From: Escherichia phage 308Ecol101PP
Sequence record: OR062945.1
Length of the DNA stretch: 64,000 nucleotides
Reading direction: 5' to 3' (one strand)
Both the position numbers and the translations under genes were made by a program. Under the pieces are notes generated by a model that was not told the origin of the DNA, did no database searches, and saw nothing but the letters and a program-made list of their open reading frames with translations. Of the stretch, positions 9,758 through 64,000 are shown piece by piece. Every line of letters begins with the position of its first letter. Positions within the stretch are counted from its first letter, which is position 1.

Positions 9758-10393
9758 ATGAAAACTACTCCTATTACTATCGCTATTGACGCAATCATAA
9801 AACAAGCTTCTTCTTTGGCCGCTATGGCCAAAGTAATTAGTCAAAACCCTGCTCGTTATAATGCTATTCTAGAAACTCTTCGACGCCCAGGACTTAGTAA
9901 TTATGAAAGCCGAGTAATTATTACAGGTGTTGGTAAGAATGCTAATATTGCAACTAAAGCTTCTGAGACATTTGCTTCACTTGGTATCCCGAGTATGTAC
10001 TTGAACACTGGGCATTATTCTCACGGTGATGCAGGATTCATTGCGCCTAATGATGTGTTGATTCATATTAGTCGTTCTGGTAAAACTGAAGAAATGATAG
10101 GCGTGGCTAAGCATCTTAAAATGATTCGTCCGAACGTCAAACAGATTCTGTTGCATTGTAACCCGGACATTCCACAAGAATACGAAGCTCTTTTTGATTA
10201 TACGTTCTGTACAGGCATCGCAGTAGAGGTTGATGAGAATTCTCTGGCTCCGACCATGTCCACTACATTGTTGTTAGCGCTTATCGATACGTTTGCTATC
10301 AACCTTTCGTCTGAACGTGGATTTACCTCTAATGACTTCCTTAAGTTCCACCCTGGTGGTGCACTAGGTGCCATGTTACGAGGCGAACAATGA
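9758..10393 (+). CDS. SIS-domain sugar-phosphate isomerase, KdsD/GutQ-type (arabinose-5-phosphate isomerase-like), no CBS domains
   Basis: 211 aa; motifs TGVGKNANIATKASETFASLG, HGDAG, SRSGKTEE typical of KdsD-type SIS domains; not a T4 gene. Confidence 0.7.
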   Translation: MKTTPITIAIDAIIKQASSLAAMAKVISQNPARYNAILETLRRPGLSNYESRVIITGVGKNANIATKASETFASLGIPSMYLNTGHYSHGDAGFIAPNDVLIHISRSGKTEEMIGVAKHLKMIRPNVKQILLHCNPDIPQEYEALFDYTFCTGIAVEVDENSLAPTMSTTLLLALIDTFAINLSSERGFTSNDFLKFHPGGALGAMLRGEQ

Positions 10394-10533
10394 AAGCAAT
10401 AACAATAGGACTTTTACTATTGATGCTTGTCATGACTATCTACTGGAGCTTAACGGCTCCAGTAATGATTCCGACTCTTATAATCGGATGGATTATGATT
10501 GGACTACAAGCAAAGTATGAATGCTTTAACTAG
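10390..10533 (+). CDS. small hydrophobic membrane peptide (47 aa)
   Basis: ATGA overlap with SIS gene stop; MKAITIGLLLLMLVMTIYWSLTAPVMIPTLIIGWIMIGLQ...; below ORF-track cutoff. Confidence 0.4.
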   Translation: MKAITIGLLLLMLVMTIYWSLTAPVMIPTLIIGWIMIGLQAKYECFN

Positions 10534-10574
10534 AATAGTGTACAATACTCCTACTTACCAATGAGGACCACAAC

Positions 10575-12260
10575 ATGAAAAAAGCTGTTATTCTTGGTGC
10601 TGGACTGGCAACTCGTTTGTATCCAATAACGCATCATATTCCTAAGGTGCTTGTTAACTATAAACAAGACACTATTCTGAGCAATTTGTATACAATTTAT
10701 TCTGACCTTGGCGCAGATGAAATTATTGTAGTAGTTCATTCAAAATTTGCTGAAACTGTTCGAGCTTATTGTGAGCAAGAAGGGTTCAATGTGACTATTC
10801 GTACAGTTGATGAAGCGTATGGTTCTGCTTATGCTCTTGCTAAATTGCACAAAGATTTAGACGGCCATAATGTAATTGTTAACTGGTGTGATATTATTCC
10901 TGATTTTGGTTCGTGGTCTTGGAATGTTAACGCAATCTATGTTAAGGGTGACGAATGTCGATATAATTTCGACGGTGAAAATATCACTAATGTAGGTTCA
11001 ACAGGTGGTAATGTTGTAGGAATTTATCAGTTCAAAGACTGGGAATTCTATATGGGTTCTACTGATGAGGAAATTCATGAATACTGCAAAGGACGTGATT
11101 TCGTAGAATTCCTTTACGGCAGCGCATTCAATAAATCAGAGCTTATGAATCTAATTGATTTAGGTGATATGCCTAAACTTGAAAAAGCTCATGAAGTTCG
11201 TGAACTTAATCGTAGTTTTAATGCAGTTGAAATTGGTGAAGAAACTGTAACTAAATTCGCATTAACCGAACAGGGCCGAGCTCTTCAGAAAGATGAGATT
11301 TCATGGTATCTTAAAGTGAAATCAGATTCAGTTCCTCAGTTAGTTTCTGTTAATGAAAATAACTTTGAAATGGAACGCATTAAAGGTAAGCCGGCATTTG
11401 AATATATTAAATCCAAATCAAGTCTTGCTCGTCCACAAATTGTTGATGCAATTTTAGATGCACTGAAATTCAGCACAGACACTTATTTTGTAAGTCCTGA
11501 AACTGTTCGTCGTGATTTCACTAAAGAATTCTATACTAAAGTTATTGATCGTTGTGAAAGTATTCAACCATTGATTGATTCATTTGGTAAAATCACACAT
11601 GTGAACTACACTAAGATTGGGCGTCTGAAGCCAATGTTGAAACAAGCTTTAGAACACCTTATTCGTTATCATAACCGTTCTCAGGGACAGTACTCTGTTA
11701 TTCATGGTGACCCGAACTTCAGTAATACTATGATTACTGATAATGGTGAAGTCAAGTTTATCGACCCTCGTGGATATTTTGGTGAAACCAAGATTTATGG
11801 GCCAAAATTGTATGATGAAGCTAAAGTGCTTTACGCTGTTTCAGGTTATGATGAATTCAACGCTAATCCGACTTGGGGACAGTTTACTATTGATGAAACA
11901 ACTTGTAATGTGACTATTAACATCAATCCGTTAGTTTACAAATATGGAAAGATGAGTTCGTTTAACGAGTATCATCATTTGGCAGTGGCAATTATCTGGA
12001 TTGCATTAGGTGGTTATTTCAAGAATAATCCACTTAAAGCGGTAGCCGCATATTATAAAGGTATGGAACTTCTGACTAAGCAATTACGTAATATGGGCCG
12101 TGTACTTCAGGACGGCACTATTAGTTATGATGTAGCAGAACCTGTAACGGCTACTCTGATTACAAAAAATCCTGGTAAATGGGTACTAACTGATAAAGAA
12201 ACTGGTGTTTCTTATCGTCCAATCGGTGGCGATATCACTCATCAATGGGAACGAATCTAA
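10575..12260 (+). CDS. bifunctional protein: N-terminal sugar-1-phosphate nucleotidyltransferase (RmlA/GalU-like) fused to C-terminal APH/choline-kinase-like sugar kinase
   Basis: 561 aa; N-terminal GAGLATRLYPIT (RmlA signature G-x-G-T-R-L-x-P-I-T) ; C-terminal HGDPNFSNTMI...IDPRGYFG (Brenner motif plus DxxG of kinase-like phosphotransferases). Confidence 0.7.
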   Translation: MKKAVILGAGLATRLYPITHHIPKVLVNYKQDTILSNLYTIYSDLGADEIIVVVHSKFAETVRAYCEQEGFNVTIRTVDEAYGSAYALAKLHKDLDGHNVIVNWCDIIPDFGSWSWNVNAIYVKGDECRYNFDGENITNVGSTGGNVVGIYQFKDWEFYMGSTDEEIHEYCKGRDFVEFLYGSAFNKSELMNLIDLGDMPKLEKAHEVRELNRSFNAVEIGEETVTKFALTEQGRALQKDEISWYLKVKSDSVPQLVSVNENNFEMERIKGKPAFEYIKSKSSLARPQIVDAILDALKFSTDTYFVSPETVRRDFTKEFYTKVIDRCESIQPLIDSFGKITHVNYTKIGRLKPMLKQALEHLIRYHNRSQGQYSVIHGDPNFSNTMITDNGEVKFIDPRGYFGETKIYGPKLYDEAKVLYAVSGYDEFNANPTWGQFTIDETTCNVTININPLVYKYGKMSSFNEYHHLAVAIIWIALGGYFKNNPLKAVAAYYKGMELLTKQLRNMGRVLQDGTISYDVAEPVTATLITKNPGKWVLTDKETGVSYRPIGGDITHQWERI

Positions 12261-12646
12261 TGCACCGTGTAAAAAACATGCTTAATCTTTGTTTTGATGT
12301 CGATGATTGTATAACAGAGTGGAATAACAATCGTGATTACGTGAACTTCAAACCAGACGTCGAAATGGTGTCTGCCATTAATGCCCTGTATGATGCAGGG
12401 CATACCATAACGCTTTACACTGCTCGCGGTATGAAGTCAGTAGGTCCTGGTCGTATAGCAATTGACATTCTCCCAAGTCTGATTCAGAACTTGGCAAACA
12501 TTGGATTGAAGTACCATAATTTGCTAACACATAAACCAGTATATGATTGGATTATCGACGACAAAGCTATGCGTCCTGACGAATTCAAAGCTCTTATGAA
12601 TAAAGGCGAATTCGAAACATTTAAATCATATAAACCGAATCTATAA
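12260..12646 (+). CDS. small cap-less HAD-superfamily phosphatase-like protein
   Basis: 128 aa from ATG 12260 (TAATG overlap; ORF track starts at 12245); motif I FDVDD, motif II LYTAR, Lys (HKP), motif IV WIIDDK. Confidence 0.55.
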   Translation: MHRVKNMLNLCFDVDDCITEWNNNRDYVNFKPDVEMVSAINALYDAGHTITLYTARGMKSVGPGRIAIDILPSLIQNLANIGLKYHNLLTHKPVYDWIIDDKAMRPDEFKALMNKGEFETFKSYKPNL

Positions 12647-12692
12647 TAATTTAAGTAAGACCTGCAAAAACCATCGCATCAATTAACGTGGG

Positions 12693-13868
12693 ATGCAAAA
12701 AAAAAAAATGAATACTTTTAAAATCGGAACGAATTTTGATTTAGCTCTTCTTGATAAAATCGTAGAGCTCAATAAAACTTATCCTAATAGCTTGATAAAC
12801 GAAGTATACGGCTCTACAAGAGAAATGGCTTTTGTAGCAGCCAGACCTGATTTTAGGCTTCCTGACGTTGACAAAAAGATGTTAGAAGATTACGTTAAAC
12901 GTTGTAACGAATTAGGTATTTGCTTTAACTATACACTCAACACGATAAATCCTGGTTCAAAAAGAGAACTAGTTGAGTGGAAGAAGAAAGCTATTCAGGA
13001 TTATGTTCAGTATCTTTGGTCAATAGGCGTATGGCGTATTACTATCGCTAACCCTGTTGTTATGGAAATTGTTCGTGAAGTCAATAAAGACATTGAGATT
13101 GAAGTTTCAACAATTCTACATGTCGATGCTGTAACTCAAATCAAATACTTGCATGACCAATATAATATCAAAAAGGTCTGCTGTGGAATTCATAAGAACC
13201 GTTCAGTTTCTTTCCTGAAACGTGCAGCAGAGTTTTGTAATAAGAACAATATAATATTTGAAGTTCTTGTAAATGAGTTCTGTTCTAATGCTGGTAAAGG
13301 GTACACAACACATTGTAGCTATCGTGACTCTTGCTATATTTTCCATAGCACCGATGTTACAGTAGATGATGCCAAATCCTTAAATGGATATCCAATGCAA
13401 CACTGTATTAAAGCTCGTGATACAGATCCATTTAACTGGTTGAGAACTCGTTTTGTTCGTCCTCAAGATTTGAAACTTTATAATGATATTGGTATCACTC
13501 AATTTAAAGTTTCAGGACGTACAGGTAGCACCGACTACATTTTAAAAGTTCTTGAAGCTTACGCTTCTGAAAAGTTTGAAGGTAATTTGTTGGAATTGTG
13601 GAAGCCTTTAGAGACCATTTTCACTCTTGAAAATGAGACTGAGTTTTCACATACGGTAAATATTGAAACCTCTTTGTTAGACGGCTTTTTAGAAAAAAGG
13701 TGGTTCAAACATCCAGATTTCGATTGTGCTAATGAAATCTGCGGGACGACGTGTACATATTGTGAAAGATATTATAAACGTCAGTTATCTAAAAATGGGT
13801 TATCAGAAAACTCTATATCTATTATTGATATAACTAACTCTGATGACGCTTTGAGGTACCCAGAATGA
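12693..13868 (+). CDS. U32-family (peptidase U32 / UbiU-UbiV / RlhA-like) putative Fe-S protein
   Basis: 391 aa; U32-like blocks (ICFNYTLNT; EVLVNEFCSNAGKGYTTHCSY; FKVSGRTGS resembling the K-I-E-G-R motif); C-terminal CxxxCxxC (CGTTCTYC); alternative start ATG 12708 after an A12 run. Confidence 0.55.
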   Translation: MQKKKMNTFKIGTNFDLALLDKIVELNKTYPNSLINEVYGSTREMAFVAARPDFRLPDVDKKMLEDYVKRCNELGICFNYTLNTINPGSKRELVEWKKKAIQDYVQYLWSIGVWRITIANPVVMEIVREVNKDIEIEVSTILHVDAVTQIKYLHDQYNIKKVCCGIHKNRSVSFLKRAAEFCNKNNIIFEVLVNEFCSNAGKGYTTHCSYRDSCYIFHSTDVTVDDAKSLNGYPMQHCIKARDTDPFNWLRTRFVRPQDLKLYNDIGITQFKVSGRTGSTDYILKVLEAYASEKFEGNLLELWKPLETIFTLENETEFSHTVNIETSLLDGFLEKRWFKHPDFDCANEICGTTCTYCERYYKRQLSKNGLSENSISIIDITNSDDALRYPE

Positions 13869-14026
13869 TTTCTAGAAAAACTTTTAACCACCAACTTAAC
13901 GAAGAGATTTTGACTATTAAAATTAACAGCAACGAACAAATTCTTAAAAAGGCCCTTATGGGCCTGTTTGAAACTAAAGCGGCTAAAGTGATTAAAGAAA
14001 CCTGTTCAACTAGAATACTACGCTGA
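13865..14026 (+). CDS. small hypothetical protein (53 aa)
   Basis: ATGA overlap with preceding stop; below ORF-track cutoff. Confidence 0.3.
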   Translation: MISRKTFNHQLNEEILTIKINSNEQILKKALMGLFETKAAKVIKETCSTRILR

Positions 14027-14105
14027 TGCATTTCTTCATAGTGTTCTTGGAAATATCGATGCTGAAGCTTTACGTTATATCAACATCGCTAAGAAATTCA
14101 AATAA

Positions 14106-14128
14106 GCTTTATGAATTGAGTATATAAT
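14106..14128 (+). promoter_or_regulatory. putative MotA-dependent middle promoter upstream of gene 42 homologue
   Basis: GCTTTA (MotA-box-like) 11 nt upstream of TATAAT. Confidence 0.35.
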
Positions 14129-14146
14129 AACTGTATTGAGGTAAAC

Positions 14147-14863
14147 ATGGGAAAACATAACACAATGAAATATATTAAAGCCGCAGATTTTCAATCCGCA
14201 TTTAAAGCTGTCAATCGTGAAATTTTAGAAAATCCACAGTTCGTTACTGATTCTCGTATTGGACGTTGTAATGAAATTGGGTCTATGACAGTAGTTGTTG
14301 ATACCCCTTCATCATTCAAAATGACCGACCCACGTATTAATCGCATCTCTTATGAATATGCTGAAGATTTCTGGAAATTTATGATTTCTGGTGGTACTGA
14401 TGCAAAAGAAGCATTTAAGGCATATCCTAACGTTGCTAAATTTATTTCTAAACCTAAATCAGACGCTTTGCCTGCAAACTTCAACACTTTCTATGGTCCA
14501 CGAATTGCGGCCCAGTTACCAGCTCTTCTCAAAGAACTTAAAGAGAAACCTAATTCACGAAGAGTTGTGTTTCAAATTCTTGAAAGTTCAGATCAGGCTT
14601 TGCTTGATTCGGATGAAACGCTTGAATATCCATGTACTGACTCAGTGACTTATTATATTCGTGATGGTAAGCTTTATACCCACTGTCATATGCGTTCTCA
14701 GAACTGTGCTGTTGTTATGCAGTTGGATTTTTATCTCCAAGGAAAATTACTTCATTATATCGCTAACGAATGTGGTGTAGAAGTTGGTGATTATACTCAT
14801 ACCATGGTAAGTGCCCATGTGTTTGAACGTGATTTTGATTATGTTAAAGGATTCCTTGACTAA
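14147..14863 (+). CDS. 42: thymidylate-synthase-fold deoxynucleotide hydroxymethylase, gp42 (dCMP hydroxymethylase) homologue
   Basis: 238 aa; NSRRVVFQ, EYPCTDSVTYYIRDGKLYTHCHMRSQN, VSAHVFERDF align with T4 gp42/TS active-site blocks as recalled; T4 gene order. Confidence 0.7.
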   Translation: MGKHNTMKYIKAADFQSAFKAVNREILENPQFVTDSRIGRCNEIGSMTVVVDTPSSFKMTDPRINRISYEYAEDFWKFMISGGTDAKEAFKAYPNVAKFISKPKSDALPANFNTFYGPRIAAQLPALLKELKEKPNSRRVVFQILESSDQALLDSDETLEYPCTDSVTYYIRDGKLYTHCHMRSQNCAVVMQLDFYLQGKLLHYIANECGVEVGDYTHTMVSAHVFERDFDYVKGFLD

Positions 14864-15762
14864 TGGCTATTTTCCGCGTACCTATCTTGAGTATGCGGTC
14901 TTATGAAACTGGACAGTATGCTATCCTTAAGGATGGCAACTTCCAACTTCATTTGCACCGTGCTAATCCGGGTGATGTGATTACATATCCACGTAATGCA
15001 TCTGATATTAAAGAATGCGAACGTCTTTTTCCAGAATTTAAGTTTGTTCCATTATGGTATAAAGATAACGCGTATAACACTCGTAAATATTTCTGGTCTG
15101 AAAATGAATTTGTGGTTGATTCATTAATTGCTTATTATGATTGTGATTTTCTAATCACAGATATCACTGGATATGACGGCGCTTTTGATGTGGAATTCAA
15201 TTTCAATATCACTGCAGACCCTAATAAACCACGTTTTTATATTGACGAATTCTTAAAAACCGACATGTTGTCGGTTAATCGTTCACTTCAAACTACTGTG
15301 TTGAATGAACGTCAAAAAGAAGTGCTGGTTAACGCAGGTGCAGATGGTAATAAGATTATCGTAACCCAGAAAGTTATACGTCCTTCCATCATGCAGCGTC
15401 TTGTAGGTGATTTGGCTCCTATTCATCTAGATGGTATTTTTCATCCATTTCGAATTAGTGACCCGTGCTATCGTTTTGAACAAGTGGTTGAATGTGCAAT
15501 TCAATTAGGTCAACCGCTTTATATAACTGATCCAAATAATAGTTTCGACAGAAATAAGTATCCTGAAGAAGCGCTGATTCGAATTTTTAATCCAACTAAA
15601 ACTGAGTACTATCAAATTCTTAAAGGACGTCCGAAGATTCAATATTTCGAAAATCCTGAAGAAGTATTCCATCCAGGTCTTGGTGAGTTCATCTACTTTA
15701 ATGCTTTAATTTCTTCGCCGTATAATATACCTAAATACGAAGATGTCGTAATCGAGGAATAA
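14863..15762 (+). CDS. hypothetical protein in the position of T4 beta-glucosyltransferase (299 aa), no recognisable similarity to beta-gt
   Basis: TAATG coupled start after gene 42 homologue; no motif recognised. Confidence 0.5.
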   Translation: MAIFRVPILSMRSYETGQYAILKDGNFQLHLHRANPGDVITYPRNASDIKECERLFPEFKFVPLWYKDNAYNTRKYFWSENEFVVDSLIAYYDCDFLITDITGYDGAFDVEFNFNITADPNKPRFYIDEFLKTDMLSVNRSLQTTVLNERQKEVLVNAGADGNKIIVTQKVIRPSIMQRLVGDLAPIHLDGIFHPFRISDPCYRFEQVVECAIQLGQPLYITDPNNSFDRNKYPEEALIRIFNPTKTEYYQILKGRPKIQYFENPEEVFHPGLGEFIYFNALISSPYNIPKYEDVVIEE

Positions 15763-15763
15763 A

Positions 15764-16312
15764 ATGGTTAAAATTATTTTAGTAGATGGCCCGGATAATG
15801 CCGGTAAAACAACTTTCATTAATGACATAATGGAAATTAGTGAAAGATATGTAAAGATTGATTTCCCTAAACGAACAGTTGATGGACGTTTCGATGTTAA
15901 GTCTCGAAATGAAGTTGGCTGTTTCGAAACGATGTTGAATTATTTAGACCCTACTAAGATTTATCTGTTAGACCGTGGATATATTAGTAACTGGGTTTAT
16001 GGACGTATTCGACAAGATGCGGACTCGGTTCTTGACGTTTATGAACAGGATTATGTTCGTCTTTGCCAAAACCATGATGTGTTCACAATTATTTTAACAC
16101 GTAACGAAATGACTGAAAGTTTTGAAGACGACCTTATTACTTTGTCTTCATTCGGTTTTAATACAGTCATTTCATATTTTGAAGAGTTTGCAATTCATAA
16201 CAAAATCCAAACGTATCAATTACTTAATCATGACGGTGCTAACAAAGTTATAGGATTTAATGCAAGCGAACGTAATTATTTGATTACAGAAATTATCAAA
16301 TGGGCTCGTTAA
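15764..16312 (+). CDS. P-loop NTPase, putative nucleoside/nucleotide kinase-like protein
   Basis: 182 aa; Walker A LVDGPDNAGKTT at N-terminus, size typical of dNMP/dNK kinases. Confidence 0.5.
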   Translation: MVKIILVDGPDNAGKTTFINDIMEISERYVKIDFPKRTVDGRFDVKSRNEVGCFETMLNYLDPTKIYLLDRGYISNWVYGRIRQDADSVLDVYEQDYVRLCQNHDVFTIILTRNEMTESFEDDLITLSSFGFNTVISYFEEFAIHNKIQTYQLLNHDGANKVIGFNASERNYLITEIIKWAR

Positions 16313-16330
16313 GAGCCTGTTTAAAGTTTT

Positions 16331-16358
16331 AAATGCTGTATAACCCTTAGTATATAAT
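16331..16358 (+). promoter_or_regulatory. putative middle promoter upstream of uvsX
   Basis: AAATGCTGTA (MotA-box-like) 12 nt upstream of TATAAT. Confidence 0.35.
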
Positions 16359-16411
16359 CGTCTTATCTTTTAAACATGAGTAAAATATAATGATGCCTAT
16401 GGAAAAATACA

Positions 16412-17584
16412 ATGTCTGATTTAAAATCTCGTCTGATTAAAGCTTCTACTTCTAAAATGACTGCAGACTTGACTAAGTCTAAGCTGTTTAATAATCGTGA
16501 TGAAGTCCCTACTCGTATTCCGATGTTGAATATTGCATTAGGTGGTGCACTGAATGCCGGGTTGCAATCAGGCTTAACTATTTTTGCTGCTCCTTCTAAA
16601 CACTTTAAAACGTTGTTTGGGCTGACCATGGTTGCAGCATATATGAAGAAATATAAAGATGCAATTTGTTTGTTCTATGATTCAGAATTTGGTGCTTCAG
16701 AATCTTATTTTCGTTCAATGGGTGTTGATTTAGACCGTGTAGTTCATACTCCTATTCAATCTGTCGAACAACTTAAAGTTGATATGACTAATCAGCTTGA
16801 CGCGATTGAACGTGGTGATAAAGTTATTATCTTTATCGATTCAATCGGTAATACTGCATCTAAGAAAGAAACCGAAGATGCGTTGAACGAGAAAGTCGTA
16901 GGTGATATGTCTCGTGCTAAGGCACTTAAATCTCTTTTCCGTATTGTGACCCCGTATCTGACTATTAAAGATATTCCGTGTGTTGCAATTAACCATACAG
17001 CAATGGAAATCGGCGGATTGTATCCTAAAGAGATTATGGGCGGTGGTACAGGTATTCTTTATTCTGCCAACACGGTATTTTTTATCTCTAAACGTCAGGT
17101 TAAAGAAGGCACAGAATTGACCGGTTATGACTTCACGTTGAAAGCAGAAAAATCTCGAACCGTTAAAGAAAAATCTACTTTCCCAATCACGGTTAATTTT
17201 GATGGTGGTATCGACCCATTCAGTGGCTTGTTAGAAATGGCAACTGAAATTGGTTTTGTAGTTAAGCCTAAAGCCGGGTGGTATGCTCGAGAATTCCTTG
17301 ACGAAGAAACAGGCGAAATGATTCGTGAAGAAAAATCATGGCGTGCTAAAGCTACTGATTGTGTAGAATTCTGGGGACCGTTGTTTAAACACAAACCTTT
17401 CCGAGACGCAATTGAAACTAAATATAAACTAGGTGCTATCTCTTCTATTAAAGAAGTTGATGACGCTGTTAATGACCTTATTAATTGCAAAGCAACAACT
17501 AAAGTTCCGGTTAAAACTTCTGATGCACCGTCTGCAGCAGATATAGAAAACGACCTTGACGAAATGGAAGATTTCGATGAATAA
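16412..17584 (+). CDS. uvsX: UvsX recombinase (RecA/Rad51 family)
   Basis: 390 aa; Walker A-like FAAPSKHFKT, Walker B-like VIIFIDSIGN, acidic C-terminal tail; T4 gene order. Confidence 0.95.
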   Translation: MSDLKSRLIKASTSKMTADLTKSKLFNNRDEVPTRIPMLNIALGGALNAGLQSGLTIFAAPSKHFKTLFGLTMVAAYMKKYKDAICLFYDSEFGASESYFRSMGVDLDRVVHTPIQSVEQLKVDMTNQLDAIERGDKVIIFIDSIGNTASKKETEDALNEKVVGDMSRAKALKSLFRIVTPYLTIKDIPCVAINHTAMEIGGLYPKEIMGGGTGILYSANTVFFISKRQVKEGTELTGYDFTLKAEKSRTVKEKSTFPITVNFDGGIDPFSGLLEMATEIGFVVKPKAGWYAREFLDEETGEMIREEKSWRAKATDCVEFWGPLFKHKPFRDAIETKYKLGAISSIKEVDDAVNDLINCKATTKVPVKTSDAPSAADIENDLDEMEDFDE

Positions 17585-24298: not shown

Positions 24299-24386
24299 AA
24301 TATCTCCTTAGTTACCTATTATTTATTACGCTTTATAAAATTAATGTTAGAATTAACTCTCTTATACTGAATTGAAAGGAAAAATA

Positions 24387-24908
24387 ATGGCACACTTTAA
24401 CGAATGTTCACAACTTATTTCTGGTGTTGATAAAGCAGAAGAAGCTTATTTTAATGCTCTGATTCACGAAGATAAAGACCCACTTCAGGTAATGCTTGAT
24501 ATGCAGAAATCTTTACAGGTTCGTTTGGCAAATGACAAGCCTGAACATAACAAACATCCTGATGAATTGGCCACTGCAGGCGACGTTGTTGATTGGCTGC
24601 GTAATCAGAAAGATTATATTGATGATGAATTCCGTGAACTGCTGACTTCACTTGGTGGTATGAGCAATGGTGAAAAAGCCGCCAGCAGTGTATGGAAGCC
24701 GTGGAAAGCACAACATGCTGAATATCGTAATCGTCGTATCGATGAACTGTCTCCTGAAGACCAGCTTGAAATTAAATTTGAGATGATTGATATTCTGCAC
24801 TTCGTTCTGAACATGTTCCAAGGTCTGGGTCTTTCTGCTGAAGAAATCTTTAAACTGTATTATCTGAAGAATGCTGAAAACTTTGCTCGTCAAGACCGAG
24901 GTTATTAA
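24387..24908 (+). CDS. 56: gp56 dCTPase/dCTP pyrophosphatase (MazG-like)
   Basis: 173 aa from ATG 24387 (ORF track starts earlier at 24372); MAHFNEC..., DEFRELLTSLG, IDILHFVLNMF, C-terminal KNAENFARQDRGY match T4 gp56 as recalled. Confidence 0.85.
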   Translation: MAHFNECSQLISGVDKAEEAYFNALIHEDKDPLQVMLDMQKSLQVRLANDKPEHNKHPDELATAGDVVDWLRNQKDYIDDEFRELLTSLGGMSNGEKAASSVWKPWKAQHAEYRNRRIDELSPEDQLEIKFEMIDILHFVLNMFQGLGLSAEEIFKLYYLKNAENFARQDRGY

Positions 24909-36952: not shown

Positions 36953-38053
36953 ATGAAAGTTATGTTTATCCCATCTCGCGCAGTCCCATTTAATCCTGAC
37001 CGTGTACAAGGTGGTCTTGAAGCAGTACATTTAAATGTGTTGAAATATCTTGTGTCCATCGGTGCTGATATTGATTATATCGGCTTTGATAATGACACGT
37101 TTGGTGACTGGAAAGTTACACACCATCCTGTTGGTCATCTGACTAAATTTAGTCTAGGTATGAGTTATACTATGGCTCGTAAGATTGTTGAACTAGCCGG
37201 CATCCATGAATACGATTTTGTTGTTACTATGGAACCGACTAAACTAACCGTTCAGGCAATTAAAGACGCAGGTCTCTCTAAAGTTCATAAGAATTTTATG
37301 GCAACACCATTTGAACCGGTATCTCGTGGCATTGTTCAAATTTGGGACCAGACTATTCAAATTCATAAGAATGGTGGTAAGAGTTATGCTCCTACTAAAG
37401 CCTTCCGTGAATTTGAACGCAAATATTGTTATATGACTTCAGGTCTGACTGACAAAATTGATTATGATTATTGGCGAGCAAATCCGTTGTTTGAAGCCGA
37501 AGATTATCCGGTTATTTGTTTGAATGAGAAACCTGAAGTTCTTCCGGCGACTGATCTGATTATTAGTGCACAACGTTATGACACTAAAATGCGTCGTACT
37601 GATGTTGCTCTTGAAGCGATTAAAGCACTAGGCGAAAATGGTGTAGGATACTGTCCAAGCAAATGGGCACCACCAGCTAAATATCCTGTTATTATTGATG
37701 CTCCACACAGTGAAATCATGGAACGTCTTAAAACAGCTAAAGCGCTTATTAATACGTGTCCTGACACAGGTACGGTAGAGAATAGTTCTATTGAAGCCAT
37801 CTCTAAAGGTGTCCCTGTAATCCAGTTAGTTTTTAAGGATTATCCTCATGCGACATTCGAATACGACCCAGATACTGTGCGTGTAGAAATTGATTCCTCT
37901 ACTCCTAAGAAAGAAGTAGTTGCGCTTTACACAAAAGCTGTATTAGAATTCACTGACACATACGAAGCTCGAGTTAAACGTGCTGAAGCAGTATGGAAGA
38001 AGTATAACCGAGATGCAGTTGTTGCGATGTGGGATAAAATCTTCACAGCGTAA
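36953..38053 (+). CDS. GT-B fold glycosyltransferase (GT4-like), candidate DNA hydroxymethylcytosine glycosyl (pentosyl) transferase
   Basis: 366 aa; C-terminal GT-B donor-binding pattern CPDTGTVENSSIEAISKGVPVI (E-x7-E); located between gene 39 and rIIA. Confidence 0.6.
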   Translation: MKVMFIPSRAVPFNPDRVQGGLEAVHLNVLKYLVSIGADIDYIGFDNDTFGDWKVTHHPVGHLTKFSLGMSYTMARKIVELAGIHEYDFVVTMEPTKLTVQAIKDAGLSKVHKNFMATPFEPVSRGIVQIWDQTIQIHKNGGKSYAPTKAFREFERKYCYMTSGLTDKIDYDYWRANPLFEAEDYPVICLNEKPEVLPATDLIISAQRYDTKMRRTDVALEAIKALGENGVGYCPSKWAPPAKYPVIIDAPHSEIMERLKTAKALINTCPDTGTVENSSIEAISKGVPVIQLVFKDYPHATFEYDPDTVRVEIDSSTPKKEVVALYTKAVLEFTDTYEARVKRAEAVWKKYNRDAVVAMWDKIFTA

Positions 38054-38358: not shown

Positions 38359-40572
38359 ATGATTATTGAAACGGCTAAAGAAACGATTATTGGTTCAGGC
38401 GGTAAGAGCACAGCATTTACTATTCAAGGCAATAGCAAAGTTTATAAGATTTTGTCTAATGACCTTTATACAAACAAAGAATTGGCTTGTGTACGTGAAT
38501 TAATCACAAACTGTATTGATGGGCAAATTCTTAATGGTTGCACTGATAAGTTTATTGTTCAGGCTCCAGGTCGTTTAGACCCACGTTTTGTAGTTCGTGA
38601 TTTTGGACCTGGTATGAGTGATTTCACTATTCGTGGTAATGACGAAGAGCCAGGAATTTATAACTCATATTTTGCTTCAACTAAAACATCGAGTAACGAT
38701 TTCATTGGTGGATTCGGACTCGGCTCTAAAGCTCCATTAGCATATACTGATACGTTTAACCTTACGTCTTATCATAATGGTGAAGTTCGTGGTTACGTAA
38801 TCTACCAAGATGACACAGGTCCACAGATTAAGCCGACCTTTGTAGATAAGATGGGTCCTGATGACCGTACGGGTGTAGAAGTAGTTGTACCGGTTAACCC
38901 GGAAGATTTTGAAAAGTTTGCATCCGAAATTGCATATGTTATGCGTCCTCTAGGTGATATTGCAGAAGTTCGTGGTGTTAAAGATATTAAATACTTCCCA
39001 GAATTTGATGATGTATATTTGGCCAAGGAAGCTCCATGGGGTGAACGTGGTAATATCATGGCTGTTTATGGCGGTATTGTATATCCAATCGGAAGTGTTA
39101 TTAAAGAACAAACATGGATGATGACACGATGCACTACAGCTTATATTAAATTCCCAATGGGTGAACTAGATGTTGCTCCGTCTCGCGAAGCATTGTCATT
39201 TGATAAACGTACAGTAGCAAATATCCATAAACGCGTTGCAGAAATCGATGCTAAATTGTTCGCTGAAGATTCTAAGAAATGGATTGATTGTAAATACCCA
39301 CGACATGTGTTCCGCGAAATTGATTCTCTTGGCTATACCGCTCGTAAATACATGGAAAAGGCCGGGTCTAATATTGAATCACTGAAATACTCTAAAGAAC
39401 AACTAACTTATTCTGAGTTGTACAAACGTTTTAAAATGGGACCTGAGTGGTGTAATCTTGGTGTCGTATACGATATCGTTGAATCCCCTCGTCTTCGTCG
39501 TATTCGTGAAAGTGGTAGCTCATCATCAACCATTTCAATTAACAGCCTGATTGGCATTAACATTAAAAACGTTGAAATTGTTATTGACGATGTTAAGGGA
39601 CGCGTTCCATTAATGCGAGCTCTTAATTCAATTGAAATGTCTAAAGACGAGGTTAAATTATCCGGTAAAGTTCCACGCGGTTTTGGTAAAAGCGTACTAT
39701 TCGTTGACCCTACAGACGAAGATGCAATGAAACTTCTGGAACGCCTTAAAGTTATCTTTGATGGCGACAACATTAACATGTACAAGACTTCAGAGCTTTT
39801 ACAAATCGTTAAGCCATGGATTGAAGTCAGGAAACGGACTAATGAGCCTCGTCCTAAATCCCCGAGTGCTCATCGATTCTTTAAGAATGAAAACGATGTT
39901 TGGGTATCAGAAGACCTCTTTATTCCGGCAAGTGAAGCAGATGAAATCCAAGGTTATGCTATAGTTCGTAATCGTTCTAATGCTGAATGTCTTGACGCAG
40001 ATAAAGGTTGGTTGAACTATGACTCCAATTTCTTGACCCGTATTGCTGATTTGTCAGGTATTAAAGAGTTCACTGTAGTTCGTCCACAGATTGCTAAGAA
40101 AGTTCGTAAACTTGGTGAAGTAGAATGCTTGTTCGAAAAATCAATTAATGACTATATTACGCTAATTGATAAAGTGGATTATGATGAGTATGTATCACCA
40201 AGTCGTAGAGCACAGCCTTATTTGAATCATATTACTCGTAACGAAGAGCTTAACTTCCTTAGTAAGTATTTTAGCTCTAAGAACAAAGAAATCAGTAAAG
40301 ACTTTGCAAAACTCTCAACAGTAAATAATCGTTGGGGATGGAATCGATTCGCAGGTGCTACTAATACAGACCTGAATAAGAAGTTAGAATTGTGTGCTAA
40401 AATTTTCGATAAGCTTAAAGATAATGCTTACGATAATGATGATAAAATGGTTATTGAATTCGAAACCAATTATCATATTGTGTCAGAATACATGGGACGA
40501 CGTGGTACTCTTTCCAAAGAACAGGTCGCTCAAATCGTTAAATTCATGAAGGCCGTGGAAGCGGCCAAATAA
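38359..40572 (+). CDS. rIIA: rIIA protein
   Basis: 737 aa; N-terminal GHKL-type ATPase-like motif (VRELITNCIDG, DFGPGM); followed by rIIB; T4 gene order. Confidence 0.8.
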   Translation: MIIETAKETIIGSGGKSTAFTIQGNSKVYKILSNDLYTNKELACVRELITNCIDGQILNGCTDKFIVQAPGRLDPRFVVRDFGPGMSDFTIRGNDEEPGIYNSYFASTKTSSNDFIGGFGLGSKAPLAYTDTFNLTSYHNGEVRGYVIYQDDTGPQIKPTFVDKMGPDDRTGVEVVVPVNPEDFEKFASEIAYVMRPLGDIAEVRGVKDIKYFPEFDDVYLAKEAPWGERGNIMAVYGGIVYPIGSVIKEQTWMMTRCTTAYIKFPMGELDVAPSREALSFDKRTVANIHKRVAEIDAKLFAEDSKKWIDCKYPRHVFREIDSLGYTARKYMEKAGSNIESLKYSKEQLTYSELYKRFKMGPEWCNLGVVYDIVESPRLRRIRESGSSSSTISINSLIGINIKNVEIVIDDVKGRVPLMRALNSIEMSKDEVKLSGKVPRGFGKSVLFVDPTDEDAMKLLERLKVIFDGDNINMYKTSELLQIVKPWIEVRKRTNEPRPKSPSAHRFFKNENDVWVSEDLFIPASEADEIQGYAIVRNRSNAECLDADKGWLNYDSNFLTRIADLSGIKEFTVVRPQIAKKVRKLGEVECLFEKSINDYITLIDKVDYDEYVSPSRRAQPYLNHITRNEELNFLSKYFSSKNKEISKDFAKLSTVNNRWGWNRFAGATNTDLNKKLELCAKIFDKLKDNAYDNDDKMVIEFETNYHIVSEYMGRRGTLSKEQVAQIVKFMKAVEAAK

Positions 40573-62418: not shown

Positions 62419-64000
<1,582 letters not shown>

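Follow-up and report, generated by a model that had tools for sequence, protein, structure and literature searches.

The DNA of phage RB69 and of Acinetobacter phage DLP3 carries arabinose ether-linked to 5-hydroxycytosine (Lee et al., NAR 2026, PMC13326640). In RB69-type phages, the virion base is mono- or di-arabinofuranosyl-5-hydroxycytosine and not arabinosyl-hmC (PMC13326640, PMC13390438), DNA being di-arabinosylated in RB69 and tri-arabinosylated in DLP3 (PMC13326640). RB69 DNA was first reported as arabinosyl-hmC (Thomas et al. 2018, PMC6024577); this earlier assignment was erroneous, and Mosigvirus DNA contains arabinosylated 5-hydroxy-dC formed via a 5-hodCMP synthase (PMC13390438). 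When E. coli is given the phage dNMP kinase along with either RB69 gp48 or DLP3 gp80, 5hodC enters its DNA; the oxygen of the product originates from O2, as found by 18O2 labelling with RB69 gp48, while T4 gp42 yielded 5hmdC in the same set-up (PMC13326640). The purified 5hodCMP synthases are yellow and release FMN, which co-purifies with RB69 gp48, and an Asn at the position of E. coli ThyA D169 (D169N) is diagnostic for these enzymes; nine more D169N homologues also made 5hodC (PMC13326640). A crystal structure of the HY126 enzyme with flavin and an in vitro reconstitution with O2 were described by He et al. [quoted passage not shown]

We analyzed a 64-kb stretch of DNA (64,000 nucleotides, hereafter the window) from Escherichia phage 308Ecol101PP (OR062945.1). 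The 4 kb surrounding the gene of interest were 98% identical to many E. coli and Shigella Mosigvirus (RB69-like) phages, and 308Ecol101PP is an RB69-like (Mosigvirus) T4-type phage. Its DNA was only ~98% identical to phage HY126 across the window, which therefore represents a sister phage (sister Mosigvirus), with the AfhB protein itself identical between the two. Judged from its sequence, the open reading frame at 14147-14863 almost certainly encodes AfhB, the 5hodCMP synthase, a flavin- and O2-dependent dCMP 5-hydroxylase built on a ThyA fold. This function was assigned because identical and 98.7%-identical proteins have been characterized in publications. The gene and its translation signal are as follows.

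14139-14142, plus strand: Shine-Dalgarno-like GAGG, 5 nt 5' of the afhB ATG (direct reading of the sequence)
14147-14863, plus strand: afhB, predicted 5hodCMP synthase of 238 aa (ORF call; ATG start, TAA stop at 14861-14863)

A phmmer search against PDB sequences returned 238/238 identity to 9IQC and 9IR2 (E 1.7e-163 for 9IQC) and 234/234 identity to 9IQU. Entry 9IQC is entitled "Monooxygenase dependent on riboflavin with dCMP and FAD" and 9IQU "phage HY126 dCMP hydroxylase-AfhB with substrate dCMP"; the AfhB entries were released on 2025-07-16, with 'Thymidylate synthase' as the molecule name. The enzyme is hence already known, with crystal structures of the same sequence published in 2025-2026. 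The flavin species differs by source, being FAD or 'riboflavin' in the PDB titles versus FMN in PMC13326640. Using tblastn, AfhB was found to be 100% identical to its counterpart in HY126, 98.7% identical to RB69ORF048c (RB69 gp48), and ~69% identical to that of DLP3. The sole Pfam match was thymidylate synthase PF00303 (56.9 bits, cut-off 24.3), restricted to aa 122-235. An AlphaFold model computed from a 47-sequence alignment (pLDDT 88.1, against 40.7 for a single-sequence run) predicted a single continuous ThyA domain, which superposed on 9iqc with a TM of 0.94 at 100% identity, on the CMP 5-hydroxymethylase MilA with a TM of 0.83, and on ThyA structures with a TM of ~0.7. The thymidylate-synthase fold that an earlier note on this DNA had proposed from catalytic blocks is thus borne out by the Pfam score, the identity to 9IQC, and the model.

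The genes of the region are arranged as in the T4 replication region, with the exonuclease gene, 45, 44, 62, regA, 43, a sugar cluster, afhB, two more genes, uvsX, 40, and 41. In T4, imm, gene 42, and beta-gt occupy the interval from gene 43 to uvsX. Lying between 43 and uvsX, afhB thus takes the map position of T4 gene 42, and the gp42-like label of the earlier note holds for genome position, between the DNA polymerase gene 43 and uvsX. The afhB gene also lies within a cluster that serves to make UDP-arabinose and to transfer arabinose to DNA; this cluster spans 9758-16312, with an additional gene at 36953-38053. Its components and the accompanying nucleotide enzymes are listed below with their RB69 homologues and the evidence for each.

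9758-10393, plus strand: arabinose-5-phosphate isomerase, RB69 gp55 homologue (Pfam SIS; annotated relatives)
10575-12260, plus strand: AfhE, bifunctional arabinose-5-phosphate kinase / UDP-arabinose pyrophosphorylase, RB69 gp52:53 (Pfam NTP_transferase, weak kinase-family matches; PMC13326640)
12245-12646, plus strand: AfhF, HAD-type sugar phosphatase, RB69 gp51 (ORF and synteny; PMC13326640; annotated homologues start at 12260)
14863-15762, plus strand: first DNA arabinosyltransferase, RB69 gp46:47 (synteny with RB69, HY126, and 348Ecol098PP; PHROG 3891; PMC13326640 Table 1)
15764-16312, plus strand: thymidylate-kinase-like nucleotide kinase, RB69 gp45 (PHROG 761 'thymidylate kinase'; PMC13326640 Table 1)
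24372-24908, plus strand: dCTP pyrophosphatase, gp56-like (weak Pfam dUTPase_2; syntenic annotation in 348Ecol098PP; start codon uncertain)
36953-38053, plus strand: second DNA arabinosyltransferase, RB69 gp3 (99.2% identical to RB69ORF003c; PMC13326640 Table 1)

The second arabinosyltransferase gene sits between topoisomerase gene 39 (Pfam) and the long ORF at 38359-40572 (rIIA position). The stop codon of afhB shares bases with the ATG of the following ORF (TAATG at 14861-14865), and afhB and the ORF at 14863-15762 therefore look translationally coupled. A scan of 13800-16450 for sigma-70 promoters and terminators revealed no excess over shuffled sequence. The presence of the arabinosylation cluster around the gene agrees with the earlier proposal that its product makes a modified pyrimidine nucleotide for the neighbouring sugar enzymes.

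To read the active site of AfhB, its residues were mapped onto E. coli ThyA and T4 gp42 by BLASTP and profile alignments, and conservation was evaluated in a family alignment of 121 sequences, consisting of the window protein and 120 database homologues that are each at least 54% identical. The ThyA nucleophile C146 corresponds to C163 of AfhB. Five further ThyA positions carry a different residue, namely, L143 (E160), H147 (T164), D169 (N186, the hydroxylase signature), N177 (D194, the cytosine-specifying position), and Y209 (F226). The same residue was found at R166 (R183), R126/R127 (R138/R139), R21 (R37), E58 (E73), W61 (W76), Y94 (Y116), and H207 (H224). The nucleotide-binding and nucleophile residues are thus all kept (C163, R37, R138/R139, R183, Y116, and H224), and C163, E160, N186, D194, R37, R138, R139, R183, Y116, and H224 were invariant in 121/121 family sequences.

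An ordinary thymidylate synthase converting dUMP to dTMP would be consistent with the PF00303 match, with PHROG 160 ('thymidylate synthase'), and with the name found in many GenBank annotations and in the PDB molecule field. However, all NCBIfam equivalog models scored far under their cut-off (e.g., 69.6 versus 174.6, and 50 versus 108), N177 is replaced by Asp and D169 by Asn, the folate-stacking W80/W83 positions are occupied by F99/K102, and AfhB ends ~45 residues short of the ThyA C-terminus, such that the ThyA tail is lost. Moreover, a separate canonical td gene stands beside frd in the same window.

62576-63247: frd (Pfam DHFR)
63244 to the end of the window, which the gene runs off: td, canonical (48.6% identical to E. 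coli ThyA; all canonical motifs, including THIY)

We consequently assign next to no probability to this activity for AfhB. The earlier note had named thymidylate synthase specificity residues as the observation that would overturn its own reading; those found in AfhB, D194 and N186, are not ThyA-like. It had also considered that the choice between dCMP and dUMP could not be read from the motifs, a view that does not hold, because the Asp at the ThyA N177 position (D194) is invariant in the 121 members. The alignment against gp42 that it had suggested, focused on base-discriminating residues, was performed and pairs D194 with gp42 D179 and C163 with gp42 C148. The question of the substrate is answered by D194 and the dCMP-bound crystal structures, which indicate dCMP.

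A dCMP substrate would also suit a T4 gp42-type dCMP hydroxymethylase, an enzyme that uses 5,10-methylene-THF to form 5-hydroxymethyl-dCMP, which is then glycosylated. This was the activity put forward in the earlier note, and it is in line with the T4 gene 42 synteny between gene 43 and uvsX, with 25% identity to gp42 that includes a Cys, an Asp, and an acidic residue at gp42 C148, D179, and D145, with several GenBank records in which close homologues are named dCMP hydroxymethylase, and with the arabinosyl-hmC originally given for RB69 DNA (PMC6024577). That base assignment has since been called erroneous (PMC13390438), and RB69 gp48 produced 5hodC containing oxygen from 18O2 where T4 gp42 produced 5hmdC in the same assay (PMC13326640). 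The identical protein was moreover crystallized as a flavin monooxygenase / dCMP hydroxylase. At the sequence level, the folate-binding Asp (T4 D171, E. coli D169) is an Asn in 121/121 family members, the motif at this position reading RSQN in the AfhB family versus RSND in T4 gp42 and RAND in MilA; the Asp is found in T4 gp42, MilA, E. coli ThyA, and the phage's own td. Furthermore, HMMER aligned gp42 over the C-terminal half only, and tblastn matches to Tequatrovirus gene 42 reached only E 1e-3 to 1e-6. We regard a hydroxymethylase as very improbable, and published work on identical or near-identical proteins has already refuted this reading. The chemistry proposed in the earlier note accordingly has to be abandoned: the identical and 98.7%-identical proteins are dCMP 5-hydroxylases that use O2 and flavin instead of methylene-tetrahydrofolate, and N186 is the signature of such enzymes.

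The same note had described a conserved C-terminal half and an N-terminal half with no recognizable T4-like character. The family profile was aligned by HMMER to T4 gp42 (PDB 1B49) only over aa ~115-229, and a forced global profile alignment gave 21.6% identity for aa 1-110 versus 28.9% for aa 111-238, in agreement with the first part of this description. The second part went too far, as the N-terminal half is homologous and retains R37, E73, W76, and Y116; the BLASTP alignment of AfhB with gp42 (25% identity) reaches back to residue 27, and MilA aligned by HMMER with the full length of AfhB (aa 5-230, E 7e-17). An N-terminal half constituting an unrelated fused domain was also considered and rejected, given the full-length MilA and profile alignments and the one continuous ThyA domain of the predicted structure. 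Within the AfhB family, the most conserved stretch was aa 64-120 (…INRISYEYAEDFWKFMISGGTDA…LPANFNTFYGPRI). The corresponding region of ThyA forms much of the folate site, and we therefore infer that aa 64-120 would carry the change of cofactor from folate to flavin.

In this member of the ThyA superfamily, O2 and a loosely bound flavin almost certainly take the place of 5,10-methylene-tetrahydrofolate, and dCMP is hydroxylated directly at C5, the chemistry published for identical or near-identical proteins. In the mechanism that we propose, Cys163 would first attack C6 of dCMP, a step shared with ThyA and gp42. The resulting C5 enamine could then attack a flavin C4a-hydroperoxide sitting in the former folate pocket, a pocket that would be largely built from the family-specific N-terminal segment 64-120, and deprotonation at C5 with elimination of Cys163 would finally free 5hodCMP. 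This covalent scheme is suggested because the ThyA catalytic residues are retained in AfhB. The reduced flavin might be supplied by a host flavin reductase, which is a guess. In the downstream steps, part of which are described in the literature, the phage dNMP kinase and host kinases would generate 5hodCTP, and gp43 polymerase would then incorporate it, while the dCTPase would remove dCTP; the gp56-like dCTP pyrophosphatase at 24372-24908 would in this way keep unmodified dCTP out of phage DNA. The 5-hydroxyl group would be decorated in DNA by the two arabinosyltransferases (14863-15762 and 36953-38053), with UDP-arabinofuranose as the donor, which the products of the 9758-12646 genes (isomerase, AfhE, and AfhF) would supply.

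AfhB is notable for a thymidylate-synthase fold in which folate is swapped for flavin and which catalyses an oxygenation. A whole class of 5-O-glycosylated cytosines, which blunt restriction and CRISPR defences, originates in phage DNA with this enzyme. The Asn at the ThyA D169 position provides a simple mark for recognizing such hydroxylases, and database entries in which afhB is named 'thymidylate synthase' or 'dCMP hydroxymethylase' need to be corrected, as both names are wrong.

Upstream of afhB, the cluster includes a gene for which the published label in RB69 is only 'sugar or heterocycle reductase' (gp50, PMC13326640).

12693-13868, plus strand: U32-family protein, RB69 gp50 homologue (Pfam Peptidase_U32 42.4 bits; annotated homologues start at 12708)

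Using tblastn, 221 phage records were found to contain a homologue of this protein, with identities of 80% or more throughout. The hosts among the matches listed were Enterobacterales and Shewanella; no Acinetobacter homologue appeared among these matches, and the gene is also absent from the phage DLP3 cluster. AfhB homologues, by the same method, are present in many Acinetobacter phages. The correlation of the U32 gene with host is confounded by phylogeny. Searching the U32 protein against solved structures gave no match, and NCBIfam returned only a sub-threshold UbiU match. A profile of the U32 clade was compared with the four E. coli U32 paralogues and matched RlhA best (probability 88%, E 3e-6), TrhP, UbiU, and UbiV being much weaker. 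RlhA is the 23S rRNA 5-hydroxycytidine synthase. The clade also displayed invariant cysteines at C163, C197, C208, C214, C238, and C345-x4-C350-x3-C354-x2-C357.

The characterized U32 proteins RlhA, TrhP, and UbiU/UbiV are prephenate-dependent, oxygen-independent hydroxylases, and prephenate is the product of chorismate mutase. Between its U32 gene and afhB, Klebsiella phage KLB31 encodes a chorismate mutase of 79 aa (Pfam CM_2 38.5 bits, cut-off 27). A chorismate mutase gene was found at the U32-afhB interval in 48 phage records, which include Klebsiella, Yersinia, Serratia, Enterobacter, Edwardsiella, Erwinia, Pectobacterium, Providencia, and other phages. Mosigviruses lack this gene. In the window, neither the 53-aa ORF between U32 and afhB nor its conceptual frameshift-repaired 80-aa product had any Pfam match, and tblastn of the Klebsiella and Yersinia phage chorismate mutases against the window gave no match; the U32-afhB stretch is instead a frameshifted relative or remnant of another small Yersinia-phage ORF.

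Metagenomic homologues of the U32 protein, with 50-58% identity, were found among nucleotide-metabolism genes in unrelated phage contigs that were seen in part. Their contexts were as follows.

L006 and L009: dCMP deaminase, thymidylate-kinase-like, UDG-like, and Pol III alpha genes
L007: NT5C, dNK, and nucleoside deoxyribosyltransferase genes
L011: genes homologous to those of the first arabinosyltransferase, the isomerase, and AfhE, with the U32 gene immediately behind them
L012: U32 gene that overlaps a first-arabinosyltransferase homologue; next come genes for a TAGT-like glycosyltransferase, a dUTPase/DCD, and a UDP-galactopyranose mutase

No ThyA-like gene was found within 8 kb on each side of these five U32 loci (L006, L007, L009, L011, and L012).

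Oxygen-independent and oxygen-dependent hydroxylases occur as paired analogues elsewhere, UbiU/UbiV with the flavin monooxygenases UbiI/H/F and TrhP with TrhO. On comparative-genomic grounds, we tentatively suggest, as a possibility that falls somewhat short of an even balance, that AfhB may be the oxygen-dependent half of a dual system, in which the U32 protein would act as a prephenate-dependent, O2-independent pyrimidine 5-hydroxylase, working alongside AfhB in enterobacterial phages and replacing it in some uncultured phages. An O2-independent hydroxylase is proposed because RlhA, TrhP, and UbiU/UbiV are such enzymes, and the pairing is backed by the chorismate mutase in 48 genomes, the Enterobacterales and Shewanella hosts, the metagenomic contexts, the RlhA match, and the invariant cysteines. 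We propose that the substrate of the U32 protein could be a pyrimidine nucleotide or cytosine in DNA. If true, enterobacterial phages would make 5-hydroxycytosine DNA in anaerobically growing hosts, which would account for the persistence of DNA modification in gut phages when O2 is absent and would add DNA precursors to RNA and quinones as targets of prephenate-dependent U32 hydroxylases.

Compared with known systems, AfhB resembles the flavin-dependent thymidylate synthase ThyX by analogy only. ThyX also uses a flavin for C5 modification of a pyrimidine nucleotide, but its fold is unrelated to that of ThyA, methylene-THF is its carbon donor, and dTMP is its product. The closest solved relative outside the AfhB family is MilA, the CMP 5-hydroxymethylase of mildiomycin biosynthesis (PDB 5JNH and 5B6D), which shares a full-length alignment, a TM of 0.83, and cytosine specificity with AfhB. 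Unlike AfhB, MilA is folate-dependent, prefers a ribonucleotide, keeps the Asp at the D169 position (MRAND), and is ~100 residues longer, with 22% identity between the two proteins. T4 gp42 (PDB 1B5E and 1B49) has in common with AfhB the ThyA fold, the dCMP substrate, the Cys nucleophile, the map position, the Asp at N177, the acidic residue at L143, and the absence of the ThyA C-terminal tail. It differs by an identity of ~25%, by the retained folate-binding Asp (RSND versus RSQN), and by its chemistry, as gp42 transfers a methylene from folate and adds water, whereas AfhB instead inserts an oxygen from O2 via flavin. RB69 gp48 and DLP3 gp80 share with AfhB both the C146, N177D, L143E, and D169N signature and the arabinosylation cluster, although DLP3 lacks the U32 gene that in the window separates the HAD phosphatase gene from the 5hodCMP synthase gene, and the latter two are direct neighbours there in that order. 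Finally, AfhB of HY126 is the same in all 238 residues and in its gene neighbourhood, such that the two AfhB proteins do not differ and only the surrounding DNA, at ~98% identity, sets the phages apart.

Downstream of the AfhE-like gene and upstream of afhB lies a gene of the Pfam Peptidase_U32 family, homologous to RB69 gp50, with relatives at several database loci:

12693-13868, plus strand: U32 'peptidase' gene; related loci L004, L005, L006-L012 and L016

This gene looks like a candidate nucleotide or DNA pyrimidine hydroxylase. RlhA, the ho5C synthase, is the best match to the family among the four E. coli U32 paralogues, and the cysteines of the family are invariant. Metagenomic U32 homologues (50-58% identity) were located in clusters for deoxynucleotide metabolism and DNA glycosylation, and no ThyA-like gene was found within 8 kb on each side of them. 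In one uncultured phage contig (L011, 9145-9891), downstream of the U32 homologue come a gene of the DAHP_synth_1 family, whose product would be a DAHP synthase or a KDO8P synthase, and one for an epimerase; in another (L012, 13073-14179), it is clustered with genes for UDP-galactopyranose mutase and a TAGT-like glycosyltransferase. These neighbours hint at other sugar decorations on a hydroxyl group made by the U32 protein. The arabinosylation cluster of Acinetobacter phage DLP3 carries no U32 gene.

A chorismate mutase gene adjoins the U32 gene in 48 phage genomes, and other genera carry it in the interval between U32 and afhB; the same interval in the window lacks it and contains a short frame:

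13865-14026, plus strand: 53-aa ORF, within the U32-afhB interval 13865-14105

A second frame stops at about 14105, and the two are jointly similar to a 65-aa protein of Yersinia phage fHe-Yen9-01, gp51, with which the second shares 50% identity over 34 aa. The reading frame is disrupted in both the window and the related phage 348Ecol098PP, and phage HY126 has an additional T at a different spot in the interval. The 13865-14105 stretch looks like a small gene in decay.

Just before afhB, the plus strand reads TATAAT (14123-14128) and, 11 nt further upstream, AGCTTTA (14105-14111), which fits the T4 MotA box core with one mismatch. The afhB gene may therefore have a T4-type middle promoter, a candidate site (14105-14128) that the sigma-70 scan did not report because a -35 element is absent.

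Close afhB homologues are labelled 'hypothetical protein', 'thymidylate synthase', 'thyA', 'dCMP hydroxymethylase' or 'deoxycytidylate 5-hydroxymethyltransferase', and the PDB molecule name for AfhB is likewise 'Thymidylate synthase'. None of the annotations among the database matches listed for these homologues reflects the published hydroxylase activity. Canonical genes are also present:

62576-63247, plus strand: frd, dihydrofolate reductase
63244-64000, plus strand: td, canonical thymidylate synthase, directly after frd and truncated by the window end

Since td has 48.6% identity to E. coli ThyA with every canonical motif and stands beside frd, folate-dependent dTMP synthesis is retained by the phage alongside the flavin-dependent paralogue.

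Two further genes were each found as one intact ORF:

10575-12260, plus strand: AfhE-like gene, 561 aa
14863-15762, plus strand: first arabinosyltransferase gene, 299 aa

Each appears as two ORFs in the RB69 reference (52/53 and 46/47, respectively), and their intactness here is consistent with the attribution of both RB69 splits to sequencing errors (PMC13326640).
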